NCBI GenBank assembly: GCA_963825585.1
Contig: CAWGTX010000006.1
Span: 963,905 to 1,027,904, forward strand
Reading direction: 5' to 3'
Length of the DNA stretch: 64,000 nucleotides
Origin: an uncultured bacterium
Lineage (GTDB): Bacteria; Actinomycetota; Acidimicrobiia; Spongiisociales; ZC4RG35
Shown: in pieces, positions 2,889-62,672 of the stretch
How positions within the stretch are numbered: the first letter of the stretch is position 1
Layout: each line of letters starts with the position of its first letter
Notes under the pieces: model-generated
Told to the model about the DNA's origin: nothing
The model's input: the letters and a program-made list of their open reading frames with translations, nothing else
Database searches by the model: none
Made by a program: the position numbers and the translations under genes

Positions 2889-4408
2889 CACATCCCCTCC
2901 ACATCGAGGTACGCCAACAGTCCGTGACGGCCGCCTTCGCGACCGAATCCGGACTCCTTGTATCCGCCGAAGGGGGAAGCGGGGTCGAACTTGTTGTAGG
3001 TGTTGGCCCACACCACGCCGCTCTGCAGGCGGTCGGCCATCCACAGGATGCGGCTTCCCTTCGTGGTCCACACCCCGGCGGCGAGACCGTAGGGGGTGTT
3101 GTTGGCCTTCTCCACCGCCTCCTCGGGGGTGCGAAAACTGAGGATCGACAGCACCGGCCCGAAGATCTCCTCCTGGGCGATCCGGTGACTCATCGACACT
3201 CCCGTGAACAGGGTGGGACGGAAGAAGAACCCGCGATCGGGGATGGCGCACTCGGGCTGGAACATCTCGGCGCCCTGCTCGGCCCCGGCGGCGACCAGCT
3301 CGTCGATCTTGGCGAGTTGCGCCGCCGAGTTGATGGCGCCCACGTCGGTGTTCTTGTCGAGTGGGTCGCCCACCCGGAGGGTGGCGAGACGGTTGCGCAA
3401 CTTCTCGACGAACAGGTCGTGGATCGACTCCTGGACGAAGAGCCTGGAACCGGCACAACACACGTGGCCCTGGTTGAAGAATATACCGTTGACCACGCCC
3501 TCGACCGCCTGGTCGATGGGGGCGTCGTCGAAGACGATGTGTGCACCCTTGCCTCCCAGCTCCAGCGTGAGCCGCTTGCCGGTGCCGGCGAGCTGGCGGC
3601 GGATCATCTTGCCGACTTCGGTCGACCCGGTGAAGGCGACCTTGTCGACGTCGGGGTGCGCCACCACCGCCGCCCCGGTGGCTCCGGCACCGGGTATCAC
3701 GTTGAGCACACCTGGTGGCAGTCCGGCTTCGGCGGCGATCTGGGCGAAGTGCAGTGCCGACAACGGTGTGGTCTCGGCCGGCTTCAGCACCACCGTGTTG
3801 CCGGTGGCGAGGGCCGGCGCAACCTTCCAGGCCAGCATGAGCAACGGGAAGTTCCACGGAATCACCTGACCGGCCACACCGAGCGGCTTCGGCATCGGGC
3901 CGGGAAAGGCGTACTCCAACTTGTCGGCCCATCCGGCGTAGTAGAAGAAATGGGCGGCCACCAGCGGAAGGTCGACGTCGCGGGACTCCCTGATCGGTTT
4001 ACCGCCGTCGAGCGTCTCGAGCACCGCCAGCTCCCGGGAGCGCTCTTGGACCATGCGGGCTATGCGGTAGAGGTACTTGGCACGCTCGGCGGGCACCAGC
4101 TTCGCCCAGGGCCCTGACGCCTTTCGTGCCGCCTGCACGGCCCGGTCGACATCGCGCTCGCCCGCCAGCGGAGCCTCGGCGAGGACTTCCTCTGTGGCGG
4201 GGTTGATGGTCTCGAACCACTTCTTGGAGAGTGGCGGACGGAAGTCGCCGTCGACGAAAACGCCGTAGCGATCACCGATCGAGACCATCGCGGTCGCTTC
4301 CCGGCTGGTCGCATAGGTCCAGTCGAGTGGTTCCGACGAGGGCACCGCTACGGACCCCGGGGAGTTCGCCGGGGAGCTGGCCGGGGCATTGTCGGTGGGT
4401 TCGCTCAT
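2888..4408 (-). CDS. NAD(P)+-dependent aldehyde dehydrogenase (full length, catalytic)
   Basis: ELGGKGAHIVFDDAPID and catalytic FFNQGHVCCAGSRLFV. PWNFPLLMLAWKVAPALATGNTVVLKPAE. Alternative internal start at about 4288 (MVSIGDRYGVFVDGDF). Confidence 0.9.
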   Translation of the reverse strand: MSEPTDNAPASSPANSPGSVAVPSSEPLDWTYATSREATAMVSIGDRYGVFVDGDFRPPLSKKWFETINPATEEVLAEAPLAGERDVDRAVQAARKASGPWAKLVPAERAKYLYRIARMVQERSRELAVLETLDGGKPIRESRDVDLPLVAAHFFYYAGWADKLEYAFPGPMPKPLGVAGQVIPWNFPLLMLAWKVAPALATGNTVVLKPAETTPLSALHFAQIAAEAGLPPGVLNVIPGAGATGAAVVAHPDVDKVAFTGSTEVGKMIRRQLAGTGKRLTLELGGKGAHIVFDDAPIDQAVEGVVNGIFFNQGHVCCAGSRLFVQESIHDLFVEKLRNRLATLRVGDPLDKNTDVGAINSAAQLAKIDELVAAGAEQGAEMFQPECAIPDRGFFFRPTLFTGVSMSHRIAQEEIFGPVLSILSFRTPEEAVEKANNTPYGLAAGVWTTKGSRILWMADRLQSGVVWANTYNKFDPASPFGGYKESGFGREGGRHGLLAYLDVEGM

Positions 4409-4412
4409 CGGG

Positions 4413-5916: not shown

Positions 5917-5987
5917 TCCCGCTCCTGCCCTCGCCGTCGACTACCAAACAACATTCTGACATGGCGACGACGCGATGCCAGGACTTC

Positions 5988-6067
5988 GAGCAACGAGCAA
6001 CGAGCAACGAGCAACGAGCAACGAGCAACGAGCAACGAGCAACGAGCAACGAGCAACGAGCAACGAG
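5988..6067. repeat. 7-bp microsatellite (GAGCAAC)n, about 11.4 tandem copies, intergenic
   Basis: Perfect tandem caacgag/gagcaac units, read directly. Produces the SLLVARC/SNEQRAT periodic artefact ORFs in both strands. Confidence 0.95.
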
Positions 6068-6111
6068 CATGTATCCACCTTCCGCGCGATGAGGTCGCCC
6101 GGATAGGGAGT

Positions 6112-6336
6112 AACTTTGTCCCCCTCGAGCTTGCGAGAGGGGGAAGGGGCCCCCACGAGGAACGAGTGGGGTAGGGGGGGCCTATCCCTCGCGAGCATGA
6201 TGACGCGTTCCTGTGCCTCGCGTCGCCTGAGGACGCGCTCCCGATCGCGTGCGAGTTCATCTCGCGGGCTTTCGACCCCCCTACCCCGTTCGTTCCTCAC
6301 GGGGACCCCTTCCCCCACTCCGTGGGGGACAAACTT
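6112..6336. repeat. MITE/REP-like GC-rich element: two about 65-bp inverted arms (6112..6180 and 6276..6336) around a 95-bp core. A solo arm copy lies at 37017..37075.
   Basis: Left arm aactttgtccccctcgag...gggggaaggggcccccacgaggaacgagtggggtaggggggg. Right arm is its near reverse complement, cccccctaccccgttcgttcctcacggggaccccttcccccactccgtgggggacaaactt. Internal G/C hairpins (ccccctc/gaggggg, ggggcccc). Confidence 0.8.
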
Positions 6337-15791: not shown

Positions 15792-16182
15792 GGATCGTAC
15801 CTCCGGCCCTCCCGAAGCGAACGTACGAAACGGATGTGACAGAATCGGAGCAGCGAGGAGCGCGGGGCGAGGAGCGAGGAGCCGGAAGTCTGGACCGGCA
15901 GCCGAGGCGGACCAGCAGATACGCCGCCAGGCGGATCTGCAACCCGGCGCTTGCGCCGGGCGGCGTCTGTTCGGCGGGCGTCGACGAGGTGAACCCGTCA
16001 CCGTGCGGGCCGAAGTCGGCGCATAAGAAGTGAAGAGTTCGACGACAATGAAGACACGAGGGCGGCAGCCCGGGCGGACCAGCGTCTGTTCCGCCCGGCG
16101 TCAACCCACATCGGCAACATGATCCGGCAAGACGACGGCGCGGGGCGGAAGTCCGCCCGCAATAGAAAGGAGGTGATCAGAG

Positions 16183-32528: not shown

Positions 32529-32559
32529 GTCGACAAGTCAACAGGTCAACAGGTCAACC
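32529..32559. repeat. Array of four 8-bp-period GTYRACAR units (locus A of a dispersed family)
   Basis: gtcgacaa gtcaacag gtcaacag gtcaacc, in the divergent intergenic region. Confidence 0.9.
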
Positions 32560-33830: not shown

Positions 33831-33843
33831 CGGAGCCTCCTGT

Positions 33844-35856
33844 TCACTGTTCCGACACGCCGAGGGCGTCGACCGCCACGGCGCCGTGCTGCATGACGAG
33901 CAGCGGGTTGACCTCGAACTCGACGAATCCCTCCCCGACCACCAACGAGGCGATGCGGACGATGGCGTCGACCGCCGCCTCGACGTCGCCACCCGGTCGG
34001 GAGCGATGCCCAGCAAGGAGCGGCCACACCCGCAGCTCCTGCAGTGCGGCCTGCACGTCGTCGTGGCCGACGGGGGCGAGCAGCGTGACTGCGTCGGCGA
34101 GCAGCTCCACCAGGACCCCGCCAGAACCGACGGTGACCGTCCATCCCACTGGCGGCTCCCGCCTGACGCCCACGACCAACTCGGCGACGGCGCCGGCGAC
34201 GAACGACTCCACCATGAACTCCGAACCGAGGGCCGCCATCGACTCTGCCGCCCGGGCGAGGTCGTCGGGACCGCCGATGCCCACGACAACGCCCCCGGCC
34301 TCGGTCTTGTGCTCCAAACCGATCGCCTTCAGCACCACCGGGTATCCGATCGCCTGGGCGGCGGCGGCGAGCCCGGAGCGCGAGACGATACGGGCCCGCG
34401 GCACGACCACACCGGCCTCCGCCAGGAACGCCTTCGCCTGGTGCTCGCCGAGCGTTGCCGGCCGACCGACCTCCTCAGGGCACGGCGCGGGCACGCTCGG
34501 TGCGGCGGGGGCAGGCCGTGCCGCCGCCTCCAACGAGTGGAGGGCGTCGTCGATACCGGGGATGGCGGGGATCGACCTGTCGGCGAGCCAGGTGGCCACA
34601 CGGGCGGGGAGGTTCTCGGGCAGCGTCGCCGTGACCACGGCCGGGGTGCCACTTCTGATGCGGGCGGCCACGAACGCCTCGAGGGTCGGCCACCACCAGG
34701 TGTCGTCTGCGCCCGGGACCGGGAAGTCGATGACCAGGATCCCGGCATCCACACCGCCCGACAACGTCTCGGTGAAGCACGCCGTCATCTTGGCGAGGTC
34801 GCCCCAGATGAACGTGTGGTAGTCGAGCGGGTTGGTGATCGGCACCCGGTTGTCGAGCGTGTCGGCGATGCGAGATGCAGCGGCGGCATCGAACGCCGGG
34901 AAGGCAACGTCGAGGCCGGCAGCGCGGTCGGCGATCAGCCCCGCCTCGCCGCCCGAGCACGACAGCGACGTGAGCCGGTTGCCTCCGAGGCGCCCGTGGG
35001 TGCCGAGCACCGCCAGCGCCCCCAGCAGCACCGGCAGCGAATCCACCTGCACCACCCCCACCCGATCGAACAGCGCCTGGTAGGCGGCCGCCGATCCGGC
35101 GAGCGAGGCGGTGTGGGTACGGGCGATGGCGGCGCCGGCGTCGGTGAGCCCGGTCTTCAGCGCCACGATCGGCTTGCCCAGCCCATGCGCCCGAACCGCC
35201 GCCTCGGCGAACCGGCCCGGGTCCGACAGTGCCTCGAGGTGGAGACCGATGGCGGTGATGCGCTCGTCGGCCACCAGCGCCTCCACGCAGTCCTCGATGC
35301 CGATCCCGGCCTGGTTGCCGAGGGTGATCACCTGGGCCAGGGGAAGGCCGCGCTGCTGCATGGTGATGTTGATGGCGAGGTTGCCGGACTGGGTCACGAT
35401 CGCCACCCCCCGCTCGATGCGACGACAACCCTGGACGTCGGGCCACAGCACCGCACCGGACAGGGCGTTGACGTAACCGTGGCAGTTGGGGCCGATCATC
35501 GGCATGTCGCCGGCGGCCTCCACCAGGCGGACCTGCAGATCCACACCCTCGGCGCCCGACTCGGCGTAGCCGGAGGCGTAACACACCACCCCGCCGCAGC
35601 CGAGCTCACGCAGCGCAGCGACCACCTCGATCGAGCGGACCCGGTCGACCGCCACGAAGGCGGCATCGGGTGCTGTCGGCAGGTCGGCCACGGCGGGGAA
35701 CGTGGCCACGCCCGCCAGGTCGGGGCGGGTCGGATTGACGGCGAATACCGTACCTTCGTACCTGAGCAGCCGCGACTGCTCGATGGCGAAGGCGGCCCGC
35801 TCGCCGCCGATGAAGGCGATCGAGGCCGGGTCGAGCAGGCGGGTGAGGTCAGCCAC
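33844..35856 (-). CDS. NDP-forming acyl-CoA synthetase (CoA-binding + succinyl-CoA-synthetase-like + ATP-grasp, fused alpha/beta)
   Basis: N-terminal LLDPASIAFIGG CoA-binding motif; ATP-grasp C-terminus. GTG start overlaps the ACAD stop by 8 nt. Confidence 0.85.
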   Translation of the reverse strand: MADLTRLLDPASIAFIGGERAAFAIEQSRLLRYEGTVFAVNPTRPDLAGVATFPAVADLPTAPDAAFVAVDRVRSIEVVAALRELGCGGVVCYASGYAESGAEGVDLQVRLVEAAGDMPMIGPNCHGYVNALSGAVLWPDVQGCRRIERGVAIVTQSGNLAINITMQQRGLPLAQVITLGNQAGIGIEDCVEALVADERITAIGLHLEALSDPGRFAEAAVRAHGLGKPIVALKTGLTDAGAAIARTHTASLAGSAAAYQALFDRVGVVQVDSLPVLLGALAVLGTHGRLGGNRLTSLSCSGGEAGLIADRAAGLDVAFPAFDAAAASRIADTLDNRVPITNPLDYHTFIWGDLAKMTACFTETLSGGVDAGILVIDFPVPGADDTWWWPTLEAFVAARIRSGTPAVVTATLPENLPARVATWLADRSIPAIPGIDDALHSLEAAARPAPAAPSVPAPCPEEVGRPATLGEHQAKAFLAEAGVVVPRARIVSRSGLAAAAQAIGYPVVLKAIGLEHKTEAGGVVVGIGGPDDLARAAESMAALGSEFMVESFVAGAVAELVVGVRREPPVGWTVTVGSGGVLVELLADAVTLLAPVGHDDVQAALQELRVWPLLAGHRSRPGGDVEAAVDAIVRIASLVVGEGFVEFEVNPLLVMQHGAVAVDALGVSEQ

Positions 35857-37009
35857 CGTGTTCGCGCAGCATCGCCCGGCTGATGATGTGGCGTTGGATC
35901 TCCGAGGTGCCGTCCCAGATCCGCTCGACCCTGGAATCACGCCAGAACCGTTCGAGCGGGAGCTCGTCCATCAAACCCATGCCACCAAGGATCTGGATGG
36001 CCTCGTCGGTGACGAAGGCGAGCATCTCGGTGGACACCAGCTTGGCCATGGCGGCGTCACTGTCGGTCATGGTCCCCTGGTCGGCCTTCCACGCCGCCCG
36101 GTAGGTGAGCAACTCGGCGGCTGCGAGCTGGGCGGCCATGTCGGCGAGCTTGAACGAGACGCCCTGGAACTTGCCGATCTGCTGGCCGAATTGGCGGCGG
36201 TTGGCGGCCCACTCTGTGGCGATGGAGATGGCCCGGTCGGCCCGGCCGAGCGAGGTGGCCGCCACCTGCAGGCGGGTGGCGCCGAGCCAGGTGTTGGCGA
36301 CGTCGAAGCCGCGGTGCTCCTCGCCGAGGATCTGGCTCACCGGGACCCGGCATCCGTCGAAGGTGAGGATCGAGTTGTGATAGCCGCGGTGGCTCACCGA
36401 GTTGTACCCCTTCTGCACCTCGAAGCCGGGGGTTCCAATGTCGACGAGGAAACTGGTGATCAGCTTGCGCGGGCCCCGCGGGGTGTCCTCCTCCCCACTG
36501 GCGGCGAACAGGATCACGTAGTCGGCCAGATCGGCGTGGCTGATGAAGTGTTTGGTCCCGGTGATCACGTACTCATCGCCGTCCCGCACCGCCCGGCACT
36601 TCATCCCGCGCACGTCGGACCCGGCATCGGGCTCGGACATCGCCAGGCATTCGACCCGCTCGCCGCGGATGGTCGGCAGCAGGTAGCTGTCGATCTGGTC
36701 GCCGACGCAGGCCCGCAGGATGTTCGATGGCCGGGCCACCACGTACTGCAGCCCGTACGACGTCTTGCCGAACTCCCGCTCGATGAGGGCGATCGTCAGG
36801 TTGTCGAGCCCTCCCCCACCCAGCTCCTCGGGCATGTTGGCGGCGTAGATCCCCGCCTCGAGCGATTTCCGCTTGATCTGCTCGACCAGCTCGGGCCGGA
36901 CGTCCCCGGTCTTCTCGACCTCGTCCTCGTACGGCATCAGTTCCTTCTCCACGAAGGCCCTGACCACGTCCACGATCATCTTCTGTTCGTCAGTGATCGA
37001 GAAGTTCAT
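35849..37009 (-). CDS. Acyl-CoA dehydrogenase
   Basis: ACAD N/M/C domain signatures. Start MNFSITDEQKM with GAGG SD. Confidence 0.9.
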   Translation of the reverse strand: MNFSITDEQKMIVDVVRAFVEKELMPYEDEVEKTGDVRPELVEQIKRKSLEAGIYAANMPEELGGGGLDNLTIALIEREFGKTSYGLQYVVARPSNILRACVGDQIDSYLLPTIRGERVECLAMSEPDAGSDVRGMKCRAVRDGDEYVITGTKHFISHADLADYVILFAASGEEDTPRGPRKLITSFLVDIGTPGFEVQKGYNSVSHRGYHNSILTFDGCRVPVSQILGEEHRGFDVANTWLGATRLQVAATSLGRADRAISIATEWAANRRQFGQQIGKFQGVSFKLADMAAQLAAAELLTYRAAWKADQGTMTDSDAAMAKLVSTEMLAFVTDEAIQILGGMGLMDELPLERFWRDSRVERIWDGTSEIQRHIISRAMLREHGG

Positions 37010-37016
37010 TCCGTAC

Positions 37017-37075
37017 CTCTTGTCCCCCACGAAGTGGGGGAAGGGGCCCCCACGAAGTGGGGTAGGGGGGTGGAG
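37017..37075. repeat. Solo copy of the GC-rich hairpin element seen at 6112..6336
   Basis: tgtcccccacgaagtgggggaaggggcccccacgaagtggggtaggggggtgg; two cccccac-gaa-gtggggg hairpins. Confidence 0.8.
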
Positions 37076-37091
37076 AACCCGTCCGAAAGCG

Positions 37092-38558
37092 TCATACGCG
37101 AGAAACCTCCATCACGGCCTTCGCCGGCCGCTCCATCTGGGAATGGACCTTCCAGATCTCGTCGAGGACCGCCTTCGGTCCGTCCAGCGTGTTCGCCGAC
37201 CGTCCCGCCTCCATGTCGACGTGCACCAGCACCTGCTCGTTGGTGCAGAGCAGATCGCCGGTGTCGCCGTGGTACATGGCGTGGAAGATGTGGAGCCGCT
37301 TGTGGTCGTGGCCGAGCAGCTGGGTGGTGAACCGCAGCGGCTCACCGGTCGAGCACTCCTTGGTGTAGACGAGATGGCTCTCGACGGTGTAGAACGAGTG
37401 CTTGGCGGCCCGGTAGTCCTCGTCGATACCGATGTACCGGAAGAAGGCGTCCGACGCCCATCCGAACGCCAGCAGGTACGCCGACTCGGTCATGTGGTCG
37501 TTGTAGTCCACCCAGTCGGGCGCCACCCGGCACTGGTAGAGGGGCAGCGGCGTGTCGATCGCCATCCCCGGCGTCCAGCGGGTGGGTGCGGCCCGGTCGA
37601 CGGTGCGGCCTTCGCGCCGGGCGATGATCGCCCCCGCCCCGAGCTTGGACTCACGAAGCGAGTACATCACCGAGATCAGGGAGTCGTCACGCAGCCGCTC
37701 CAGCTCGGCGATCGAGCGTCCCGCCGCCTGTGCCTGGGTGCCCTCGACCATTCGGTCGATGAGGGTGTCGGTGAGCGGGGGCGCCACCAGCTTGGTCCAC
37801 GGCCACTCGAGGGCCGGTCCGAACTGTTCGAGCATGTGCCGCATCCCCGCCTCGCCGCCGGCCAGGTGGTAGATCAGGTTGGTCCCCATCGCCGCCCAGC
37901 GGATGCCGGGGCCGTACACGATCGAGTCGTCGAGCTCACCGGTGGTGGCGACGTTCTCGGAGATCATGTGGAGGATCTCCCGCCACAAGGCCTCCTGCAG
38001 CCGGTCGGCCAGGAAGCCGTCCACCTCGGTGCGGACGTGGAGGGCGTACATGTCGAGGTCGTCGTACACGATGAGCGCCCGCTCGACGACGTCCGGCGAT
38101 GTCTTCGCACCGCCGAGCACTTCCACCAGCGGCAGTAGATAGACGGGGTTGAACGGGTGTCCCACCACCATCCGCTCCGGATGGCGCATCCCGTCCTGCA
38201 GCTCGCTGGGCAACAGCCCTGAGGTGGACGATCCGATGATCACCTCGGGCCCGGCGGTGGCGTCGATGGCCCGCAGCACCCGTTGTTTCAACCCGACGTT
38301 CTCGGGCGCCGACTCCTGCACGAAGTCGGCCTGCTCACCCACCTCCTCGGGCGAAGCGACGAACGTGACCCGGCCGGGATCGGCACCCGGATACAGCCCG
38401 ATCTTGCGAACCGACGGCCAGGCACGCTCGATCGAGGCGTGGAGCCGGTCCTCCGCTCCGGGGGCCGGGTCGCTGGCGACCACGTCCCAGCCTCGCGAGA
38501 GGGCGCGGACCGCCCAGCCGGCGCCGATCACGCCGGTCCCCACCACGCCGAATCGCAT
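37092..38558 (-). CDS. lcdH: L-carnitine dehydrogenase-like (3-hydroxyacyl-CoA-dehydrogenase NAD domain fused to C-terminal hotdog thioesterase-like domain)
   Basis: MRFGVVGTGVIGAGWA Rossmann start; 3HCDH body; C-terminal about 150-aa 4HBT-like region. Confidence 0.7.
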   Translation of the reverse strand: MRFGVVGTGVIGAGWAVRALSRGWDVVASDPAPGAEDRLHASIERAWPSVRKIGLYPGADPGRVTFVASPEEVGEQADFVQESAPENVGLKQRVLRAIDATAGPEVIIGSSTSGLLPSELQDGMRHPERMVVGHPFNPVYLLPLVEVLGGAKTSPDVVERALIVYDDLDMYALHVRTEVDGFLADRLQEALWREILHMISENVATTGELDDSIVYGPGIRWAAMGTNLIYHLAGGEAGMRHMLEQFGPALEWPWTKLVAPPLTDTLIDRMVEGTQAQAAGRSIAELERLRDDSLISVMYSLRESKLGAGAIIARREGRTVDRAAPTRWTPGMAIDTPLPLYQCRVAPDWVDYNDHMTESAYLLAFGWASDAFFRYIGIDEDYRAAKHSFYTVESHLVYTKECSTGEPLRFTTQLLGHDHKRLHIFHAMYHGDTGDLLCTNEQVLVHVDMEAGRSANTLDGPKAVLDEIWKVHSQMERPAKAVMEVSRV

Positions 38559-40411: not shown

Positions 40412-40497
40412 ATCAACAGGTCAATCGGTCAACCGGTCAACGGGACCGGAATCGCGGGTTTGACCTGTTGACTTGTCGACCTGTTGACTTGTTGACC
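40412..40497. repeat. Inverted pair of 8-bp-period GTYRACAR arrays (locus B; 4 units, 15-bp spacer, about 5 units in opposite orientation)
   Basis: atcaacaggtcaatcggtcaaccggtcaacgg ... tttgacctgttgacttgtcgacctgttgacttgttgacc. Confidence 0.9.
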
Positions 40498-42818: not shown

Positions 42819-42854
42819 GGTGACCTGTTGACTTGTTGACCTGTCGACCTGTCC
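42819..42854. repeat. Array of four 8-bp-period GTYRACAR units (locus C, minus orientation), abutting the DMGDH stop codon
   Basis: ggtgacctgttgacttgttgacctgtcgacctgtcc. Confidence 0.9.
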
Positions 42855-53845: not shown

Positions 53846-53950
53846 CTTCACAGGTCAACGAGGTCAAGCGACGAGTCGACGAGCGACGAGCGACGAGCGA
53901 CGAGCGACGAGCGACGAGCGACGAAGCAATCCTCCGCCCTCCTCCGCCCT
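53841..53950. repeat. Composite repeat: degenerate GTCAAC-type units (locus D), then 7-bp microsatellite (CGACGAG) about 8 copies (53869..53925), then 10-bp direct duplicate cctccgccct x2
   Basis: ggtgacttcacaggtcaacgaggtcaagcg acgagt cgacgag x6 cgacgaa gc aat cctccgccct cctccgccct. Confidence 0.9.
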
Positions 53951-62517: not shown

Positions 62518-62672
62518 GATGTCCTCTTTCACAAACTCGGTGACACCACGACCAACCGTCTCCCGACGAGCCCCCTTCCCCCAGAGCGGTGAACAATCCA
62601 GAAACGAGGAGAGGGGCCACCGGACGGCGACCCCTCTCCTGTCACGAATGATTCACGAACGATCCGCGACGC

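Follow-up and report, generated by a model that had tools for sequence, protein, structure and literature searches.

An apparently undescribed family of hairpin-forming intergenic repeats in Acidimicrobiia, with similarities to REP elements

The DNA analysed here, hereafter the window, is a stretch of 64,000 nt on contig CAWGTX010000006.1 from an uncultured member of the Acidimicrobiia, a class assignment with which its proteins agree, as their top-scoring relatives are encoded by MAGs of this class. It contains three copies, or units, of a short GC-rich repeat distributed over two loci, both of which are flanked by co-directional genes on the minus strand. Coordinates are window positions, and L-numbers designate compared stretches from other metagenome-assembled genomes (MAGs). 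At the first locus, units A and B occur as an inverted pair within the 433-nt spacer separating the stop codon of a GNAT acetyltransferase gene (6350) from the start codon of a flavin reductase gene (5916). At the second, the solo unit C lies in a spacer of 82 nt, which is bounded on one side by the stop codon of a gene for a 3-hydroxyacyl-CoA dehydrogenase/thioesterase (37092-38558, minus strand) and on the other by the ATG of an acyl-CoA dehydrogenase gene (35849-37009, minus strand). The G-rich strand of unit C is antisense to both flanking genes and its 5' end falls just upstream of an AGAGG ribosome-binding site. An initial annotation of the window, made from the sequence alone, had located this copy in the 5' untranslated region of the acyl-CoA dehydrogenase gene; it is indeed upstream of that gene, but it occupies a spacer between two genes rather than a free-standing 5' untranslated region. 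Neither a sigma-70 promoter nor a T-tract terminator pattern was detected at either of the two window loci.

Unit A (6112-6180, plus strand), when read base by base, aligns column for column with 54 other copies. It begins with the 5' end AACTTTGT (6112-6119, plus strand), which is followed on the same strand by a first hairpin seen in the DNA fold (C5 at 6120-6124, insert at 6125-6138, G5 at 6139-6143), the linker AA-GGGG-C (6144-6150), a second hairpin (C4 at 6151-6154, insert at 6155-6167, G4 at 6168-6171) and the tail TA-G7 (6172-6180). Unit B (6276-6336, minus strand) is inverted relative to A, tail to tail, and reads on the minus strand AAGTTTGT-C5-ACGGAGT-G5-AA-G4-T-C4-GTGAGGAACGAAC-G4-TA-G6, with both hairpins appearing in the DNA fold. 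The 95-bp core between the two (6181-6275) is itself an imperfect palindrome (CCTATCCCTCGCGAG...GACGCGTTCC // GGAACGCGT...CTCGCGGGCTTTCGA) that pairs inside the long hairpin of the composite. Unit C (37017-37070, plus strand) reads CTCTTGT-C5-ACGAAGT-G5-AA-G4-C-C4-ACGAAGT-G4-TA-G6 with C(GAA)G tips on both hairpins, and displays 94-100% identity over 50-53 nt with copies in other MAGs (L041, L076 and L091). Its 3' tail (TGGAGAACCCGTCCGAAAGCG; 37071-37091, plus strand) is similar to the GCCGAACCCGT module found after many units in other places, the family-typical tail (GGAGAACCCGTCC) running to ca. 37085.

The inverted pair around a 95-bp core and the additional solo copy, as described in the initial annotation, were confirmed. 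A repeat search retrieved inverted arms at 6135-6179 and 6276-6320 (45 nt, 87% complementary, 96 nt apart) together with outer inverted arms at 6112-6142 and 6306-6336. With up to 3 mismatches allowed, the 18-mer GGGGGAAGGGGCCCCCAC occurs at exactly 3 places in the window, for 0.38 expected, and none of 100 shuffles reached 3. A covariance model built from 55 copies gave 73.4, 72.7 and 62.7 bits to units A, B and C, respectively, the next best score in the window being 11.1 bits; this last match, at 62571-62582, had been considered as a fourth copy and was rejected as a chance occurrence of GGGGGAAGGGGG. A 246-nt segment comprising the composite folds at -147.8 kcal/mol versus -104.3 +/- 5.6 for shuffles (z = -7.8). 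For single units, z values against shuffles are only -0.8 to -3.3, a modest advantage because any sequence so rich in G/C runs folds well; two hairpins are predicted whichever strand is folded, with a gain of 1.4-3.3 sd over shuffles. Between window copies, the pairs next to the runs are changed on both sides, with TCG/CGA versus AC/GT in hairpin 1, and AC/GT in A and C versus GT/AC in B for hairpin 2.

These three units are members of a dispersed repeat family, a point on which there is hardly any doubt. A scan with the exact pattern GGGGGAAGGGGNCCCC-N5-30-GGGGTAGGGG, applied to one genome per species, matched at least 100 stretches. Among the matches listed were 15 MAG assemblies, and all were labelled Acidimicrobiia, Acidimicrobiales, Acidimicrobiaceae or, once, Actinomycetota; the loci listed per assembly amount to at least 30 for DATFFO01, at least 18 for CAVUUV01 and at least 11 for JBHJOH01. 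The stretches listed contain 123 strict matches, and the pattern scan returned no match in viral contigs. On the G-rich strand, the unit consensus is aGCTTTGT-CCCCC-(insert 1)-GGGGG-AA-GGGG-N-CCCC-(insert 2)-GGGG-TA-GGGGG, the tail comprising G5-7. The C5/G5 and C4/G4 runs constitute the feet of two hairpins, of 17-40 nt each, in which the inserts lengthen the stems and supply the loops; the runs and linkers are fixed, and the stem extensions vary and co-vary. The motif TTTGTCCCCC is near-invariant although it lies outside the search pattern. At 4-5 nt upstream of this motif, conservation is abruptly lost, and the 5' end of the unit (aGCTTTGT) was placed accordingly. The alternative named in the initial annotation, namely a local duplicated terminator confined to this region of the genome, without other copies or terminal structure, would fit the occurrence of only three copies in the 64-kb window. 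It is practically excluded by more than 100 further copies found in 15 other assemblies beside unrelated genes, and by the conserved aGCTTTGT end.

Isolated units, tandem units and inverted dimers built around a lineage-specific spacer are all found. Their 3' side may be extended by a third hairpin with variable, compensated stems, by a GCCGAACCCGT(G)GCGGAC tail, a version of which is carried by unit C, or by the lineage-specific spacers that link two inverted units. Pairs of units within 150 nt are arranged tail to tail in nine cases, head to head in four and directly in six. The 225-bp composite of the window, with its succession of arm, core and arm, recurs at least six times in MAG JBHJOH01 (L045, L058, L064, L082, L090 and L009) with 73-91% identity and an indel of ca. 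40 nt in the core between copies, and MAG DATFFO01 contains another tail-to-tail dimer with an asymmetric spacer of 56 nt. Such a composite recalls a classical miniature inverted-repeat transposable element (MITE), that is, an internally deleted derivative of an insertion sequence (IS) with a DDE transposase, moved by cut-and-paste via its terminal inverted repeats. Indeed, these repeats are 87% complementary, the outermost AGCTTTGT/ACAAAGCT ends are common to the copies, and the 225-bp size, the intergenic placement and the multiple copies all fit. However, the target-site duplication sought as a check was not visible at six aligned composite copies, there is no locus in which two units flank a transposase gene, and isolated units and direct tandems match inverted pairs in frequency; besides, the strand-specific hairpin features described below would have no role in the recognition of double-stranded terminal repeats. 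A classical MITE thus appears quite unlikely, the absence of duplication being expected for an insertion of the HUH type or of the IS110 type.

Complete units are also frequently adjoined by arrays of partial 5' arms, composed of TTTGTCCCCC and the left half of hairpin 1 in 2-5 repeats (L010 60-100, L011 4340-4380, L023, L028, L043, L087 and L031 1740-1850), and arrays of right halves were seen as well (L032 2750-2805). These partial-arm arrays suggest slippage or breakage at the hairpin tips.

In silico analyses of an alignment of 55 copies further support the two-hairpin structure. Standard pairs account for 87.7% of the paired cells versus 75.4% in shuffles, 104 cells are changed on both sides versus 33 in shuffles, and the covariation score is 0.228 compared with 0.077 for shuffles and 0.014-0.027 for slid partners; a separate count on 105 copies agrees with this result. 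The two strands are not equivalent in this respect. C(GNA)G tips occur in 74 of 105 copies for hairpin 1 and in 87 of 105 for hairpin 2, while the complementary C(TNC)G type is found in 2 and 14, respectively; for the longer GCGNAGC motif, the figures are 40 and 47 versus 0 and 7. Paired positions also comprise 23 G.T versus 5 A.C mismatches, and 104 G.A or A.G cells that correspond to purine pairs, either in tandem or closing a loop. Extraordinarily stable DNA mini-hairpins are classically formed by GCGNAGC and by d(GNA) loops with a closing C-G pair (PMC13037366, PMC3201870). Since the C(GNA)G tips, G.A and G.T pairs are restricted to the G-rich strand, the fold of this strand is most likely the one that matters and, because this strand is not preferentially transcribed (see below), we infer that what folds is single-stranded DNA.

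The G tracts raise another issue, as the initial annotation had pointed out that they could form G-quadruplexes. Each unit has four tracts of G4-G7 (G5-AA-G4 ... G4-TA-G5-7), and the potential stands at the sequence level, the 35-41-nt part that contains the tracts scoring 1.5-1.6 on a G4Hunter-type scale; owing to competition from the C runs, the score of the whole unit is 0.6-0.7, and a role for quadruplexes was not established. A reading in which the units are G-quadruplex or protein-binding sites with a chromosomal function, such as nucleoid organisation or replication pausing, and not mobile DNA, could also invoke the strict conservation of the unpaired motifs across species. This conservation is nonetheless partly imposed by the search pattern for the G motifs, every copy has two of its four G tracts paired with the C5 and C4 runs, the predicted folds being hairpins, and the central loop of a quadruplex would measure 13-35 nt. 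Moreover, the sharp differences in copy number between close relatives would be unsuited to a general chromosomal function, and this reading is regarded as very improbable.

Genomic placement was assessed with a simple gene caller based on GC content at codon positions. Among 125 units, the flanking genes are in tandem for 43, convergent for 29 and divergent for 5, while 5 units overlap gene ends and units are almost never found inside genes. The remaining 43 are close to the end of a compared stretch, several of these being contig ends, as expected since the repeat breaks short-read assemblies. The median distance from the stop codon that precedes a unit is 66 nt, and that from the start codon that follows it is 124 nt; copies are tolerated mainly just downstream of genes. 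Between tandem genes, the G-rich strand coincides with the gene strand 20 times and with the opposite strand 23 times, with no orientation bias. The 150 nearest genes can be assigned to 202 ordinary Pfam families of at most 4 members each, and neither protein clustering nor a Pfam scan of these 150 flanking genes revealed a recurrent partner gene, which indicates that the element is non-coding and non-autonomous.

The position of the units after genes would also be compatible with an RNA module selected by the host, either a factor-independent terminator or a stabiliser of mRNA 3' ends, that spread through its usefulness in the transcript. In favour of this hypothesis are the bias towards gene 3' ends (29 convergent versus 5 divergent contexts, and a median of 66 nt after the stop), the very stable hairpins with G.U-compatible pairs, and the fact that repetitive extragenic palindromes (REPs) of other bacteria are thought to act on transcripts in this way (PMC3733652). 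The stabilising features are nevertheless carried by one strand only, yet this strand faces either way with respect to tandem genes (20 versus 23), and no T/U tract is present. Unit C lies within an operon, between two genes whose translation is coupled in relatives; a terminator at this place would do harm, and the conserved unpaired motifs are left unexplained. Finally, the Rfam check gave no family at the gathering threshold over the whole window, the best sub-threshold matches by E-value, obtained for two composites, being plant microRNA precursor hairpins with 49 bits versus a gathering threshold of 137. The stable RNA or terminator module that had been proposed in the initial annotation was therefore not established, with no T tract, promoter match, orientation bias or Rfam family to sustain it, and this explanation is considered rather unlikely.

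Comparison of orthologous sites shows that units are present or absent depending on the genome. In the acyl-CoA dehydrogenase operon of four relatives (L108, L109, L110 and L111), whose dehydrogenase (ADH) protein is 84-91% identical to that of the window, the genes either overlap (TGATG) or leave a gap of 5 nt; in the window, they are separated by the 82 nt (37010-37091) that essentially correspond to unit C and its tail and that are absent from all four. At the GNAT-flavin reductase locus, the ortholog in L112 has only a stub of hairpin 1 (TTTGTCCCCCACGGAGCGGAGTGGGGGA), 16 nt after the GNAT stop codon as in the window position, which is followed by unrelated 40-nt repeats. A third spacer, between an aldehyde dehydrogenase-like gene and a DeoC-family aldolase gene that are syntenic in three genomes, contains no unit in the window (4289-4412), one in L016 (1190-1337) and two in L026 (1054-1328); in the window, a 12-nt tandem repeat (CCGGGGAGCTCG x 2.5) occurs there instead, at 4357-4386. 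When searched with the covariance model, ca. 54 kb of DNA from the closest relatives contained no full unit, while a sister family (see below) is present there. A metagenome scan with the flavin reductase protein only retrieved relatives with at most 47% identity, of no use for empty-site comparison. These differences between relatives correspond to the pattern of a mobile or recently mobile repeat and not to that of a conserved regulatory site. Copies have very likely been gained and lost between related genomes, so that the family is, or formerly was, mobile.

The only transposases seen in association with units belong to the IS110 family, and these are inserted into units rather than bounded by them. 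In L031 (181-1458), an element of ca. 1.28 kb encoding a DEDD/IS110 transposase (Pfam) interrupts a unit right after CCCCTTCCCCC, with the remainder of hairpin 1 (CTGCGTGGGGGACAAAG) on its far side. A second IS110-family element (Pfam), which extends from ca. 6875-8000 of L080 into positions 1-204 of L085, splits CCCCTCCCCCTTGAC|AAAACCAGG, and the uninterrupted version is found next door. The two elements (DEDD_Tnp_IS110 plus Transposase_20), each from a different MAG, are located inside hairpin 1, lack a duplication of the target and have CTTGACA..ATAGGAG in common at their right ends. In other bacteria, REPs are known targets of IS110-family elements (PMC1525189; 2025 ISPpu9 preprint), which choose their targets by means of a bridge RNA (PMC11208160), and the two described here are probably bridge-RNA elements that use the repeat as target. 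These insertions are a behavioural parallel with REPs and do not imply that the units are moved by IS110. Neither tnpA nor tnpB was found beside any copy, and the genes located between distant pairs of units are ordinary ones, coding for an ATPase/cyclase, a major facilitator superfamily (MFS) transporter, a metallo-beta-lactamase and hypothetical proteins, with no transposase among them.

Overall, the window copies are probably best explained as members of a high-copy, non-autonomous, hairpin-forming intergenic repeat family of Acidimicrobiia that resembles REPs, bacterial interspersed mosaic elements (BIMEs) and REPINs, in line with the MITE/REP-like non-autonomous repeat proposed in the initial annotation, which is supported by the number of stretches and assemblies, the sharp 5' end, the covarying hairpins and the variable orthologous sites. 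Like REPs, BIMEs and REPINs, the units are short, GC-rich imperfect palindromes in high copy number, extragenic and mostly downstream of genes (PMC3733652, PMC3116915, PMC1525189). Further common traits are the occurrence as singletons, head-to-head or tail-to-tail dimers and clusters, an abundance that differs between lineages, compensatory changes and G.T pairs in the stems, a GTAG beside a stem (although set by the search pattern), the lack of target-site duplication and the insertion of IS110-family elements. A literature search on the motifs and on repeats of Acidimicrobiia yielded no description, and the family apparently constitutes a new REP/REPIN-like non-autonomous repeat family.

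With respect to its propagation, the element would be handled as the folded single-stranded DNA of its G-rich strand. As only this strand has C(GNA)G tips, tandem G.A and G.T pairs, copying may take place in trans through a structure-specific single-strand DNA enzyme, namely a tyrosine transposase of the HUH type similar to the REP-associated one (RAYT) or an equivalent. Effects on transcripts, such as hairpins at their 3' ends or the uncoupling of operon genes, would then be by-products. A single-strand DNA/HUH-type mechanism is proposed tentatively.

Several observations weigh against the REP-like interpretation or limit its reach. No gene of the Y1/HUH type (RAYT or IS200-like) was found in the window and ca. 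0.9 Mb of loci, a sample and not whole genomes, by phmmer searches of limited sensitivity and by searches with the HuH and Y motifs published in PMC6006769, nor was one present among the genes flanking the units; since a RAYT gene is usually single-copy, a sample of this size could easily miss one. A published survey of GTAG/CGTC REPs reports those with a GTAG from Proteobacteria, Cyanobacteria, Chloroflexi and the Planctomycetes-Verrucomicrobia-Chlamydiae (PVC) group and does not mention Actinobacteria (PMC3733652). The fixed G/C motifs are in part imposed by the search pattern and their invariance is overstated, the only pattern-independent features being TTTGT-C5 and the covariation of the stems. 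Compensatory changes can arise in one step by template switching in quasi-palindromes, and are therefore no proof by themselves of selection for structure. Unit orientation agrees with the local GC skew in 44 of 86 cases, a weak test since it was performed on 8-kb pieces. Finally, protein divergence between the genomes with filled sites and those with empty ones amounts to 10-25%, so that exact ends and target sequence could not be defined.

Membership in the REP/REPIN class is accordingly putative: no link to a RAYT emerged from the DNA sampled, the GTAG was imposed by the search and is internal, and the architecture is different. Whereas a REP is a single palindrome of 20-40 bp, the unit described here combines two to three hairpins in a fixed array with conserved G-tract linkers. 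Its GTAG is not at the end of the element but between hairpins, inside GGGG-TA-GGGGG; it occurs in every copy, directly 3' of hairpin 2 and 5' of hairpin 3, but had been specified in the search pattern, and hairpin 2 includes its first G as a paired base. The dimer, of ca. 225 bp with a 95-bp palindromic core, also differs from a typical REPIN, which is smaller, and the host phylum, Actinomycetota, does not figure in the list of those with reported GTAG REPs.

A broader interpretation, more speculative and doubtful at this stage, is that of a multi-hairpin superfamily extending to the whole Acidimicrobiia and including sister families such as that of L108. Its hairpins would be tuned as ultra-stable mini-hairpins of one strand of single-stranded DNA and would spread via an enzyme other than a canonical RAYT (an unrecognised HUH protein or other single-strand DNA recombinase) or by hairpin-primed copying, with G tracts that switch between hairpin and quadruplex and with heptamer tracts as a possible footprint.

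Other known systems share part of these features. The bacterial MITEs Correia, ERIC, Nezha and RPE are similarly small, non-coding, repeated and intergenic, and the composite has in common with them its terminal inverted repeats and long hairpin; in contrast, neither a target-site duplication nor a parent IS was found for the family in ca. 0.9 Mb, and half-elements and tandem partial arms are common. The ends of IS200/IS605 elements and of their miniature derivatives, the palindrome-associated transposable elements (PATEs), have a subterminal hairpin on one DNA strand and cause no duplication, which would match the one-strand bias of the units, but neither TnpA nor TnpB is encoded beside the copies and no conserved tetra- or pentanucleotide cleavage flank was definable. 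BOX elements of Streptococcus pneumoniae are built from few cassette types that vary in number and order, just as hairpins 1, 2 and 3, tails and spacers combine variously here, although the two display no sequence relationship and differ widely in base composition and host. Integron attC sites recombine as folded single strands and have conserved unpaired motifs with variable stems; unlike these, the units are associated with no gene-cassette array, nearby integrase or R/L core sites.

REP-type repeats and their transposases have so far been studied mostly in Proteobacteria and Cyanobacteria. The present data would show a REP-type life-style in uncultured Actinomycetota of soil and water, with a different build relying on two to three hairpins, G-tract linkers and mini-hairpin tips. 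Besides disrupting assemblies, the repeat inflates intergenic regions, uncouples operon genes as illustrated by the acyl-CoA dehydrogenase operon, and offers landing sites for IS110 bridge-RNA elements. It would serve as a marker for strain typing and for checking the binning of MAGs in Acidimicrobiia and, should these genomes truly hold no RAYT, it would provide a tractable case for a new mechanism of single-strand DNA mobilisation.

Other repeats were encountered in the same regions. The sister family has another sequence and a like architecture, CTTGTCTC(T)CCCCC-...GCGAAGC...-TTGGGGGGAG-CCGGC GCA GCCGG-GAGGGGGG. It was detected in L108 (7873-8457), where it occupies a spacer of 585 nt whose window counterpart measures ca. 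13 nt (33831-33843), and in L109 (3990-4220).

Intergenic heptamer tracts, including (GCAACGA)12, (AGCGACG)8, (CGGAAGT)n, (AGACGGA)n and (CACGTCT)n, are common in these Acidimicrobiia. They often lie 3-50 nt from the 5' TTTGT end of a unit and seldom at its 3' end. In the window, a tandem GCAACGA heptamer (x 11.9, 5987-6069) is located outside the unit, 43 nt beyond the 5' end of unit A, and two other tracts are found at 53867-53924 and 15852-15882. Elsewhere, such tracts occur in L004 (6542-6601), L019 (453-495), L013 (696-720), L031 (1546-1573), L074 (7940-7984), L092 (1180-1205) and L084 (5164-5244). The ortholog in L112 has a (GGTCGCTCGTCGCT)n tract at the equivalent place upstream of the flavin reductase gene, though without the composite, and the tracts therefore exist independently of the repeat.

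A tandem repeat of ca. 40 nt, in up to four copies and with the palindrome TTGCACAnTGTGCA (CACCTTTTGCACATTGTGCAG), was observed ahead of flavin reductase orthologs in L112 (5740-5880) and L113 (380-470) and in the flanking DNA of L064 and L077; it resembles an array of operator sites and is missing from the corresponding spacer of the window. Finally, Tandem Repeats Finder (TRF) detected tandem repeats with a period of 8 nt (TCAACCGG, TTGACCTG, TGACCTGT and GTCAACAG) in the window at 40413-40497, 42821-42852 and 32537-32558.

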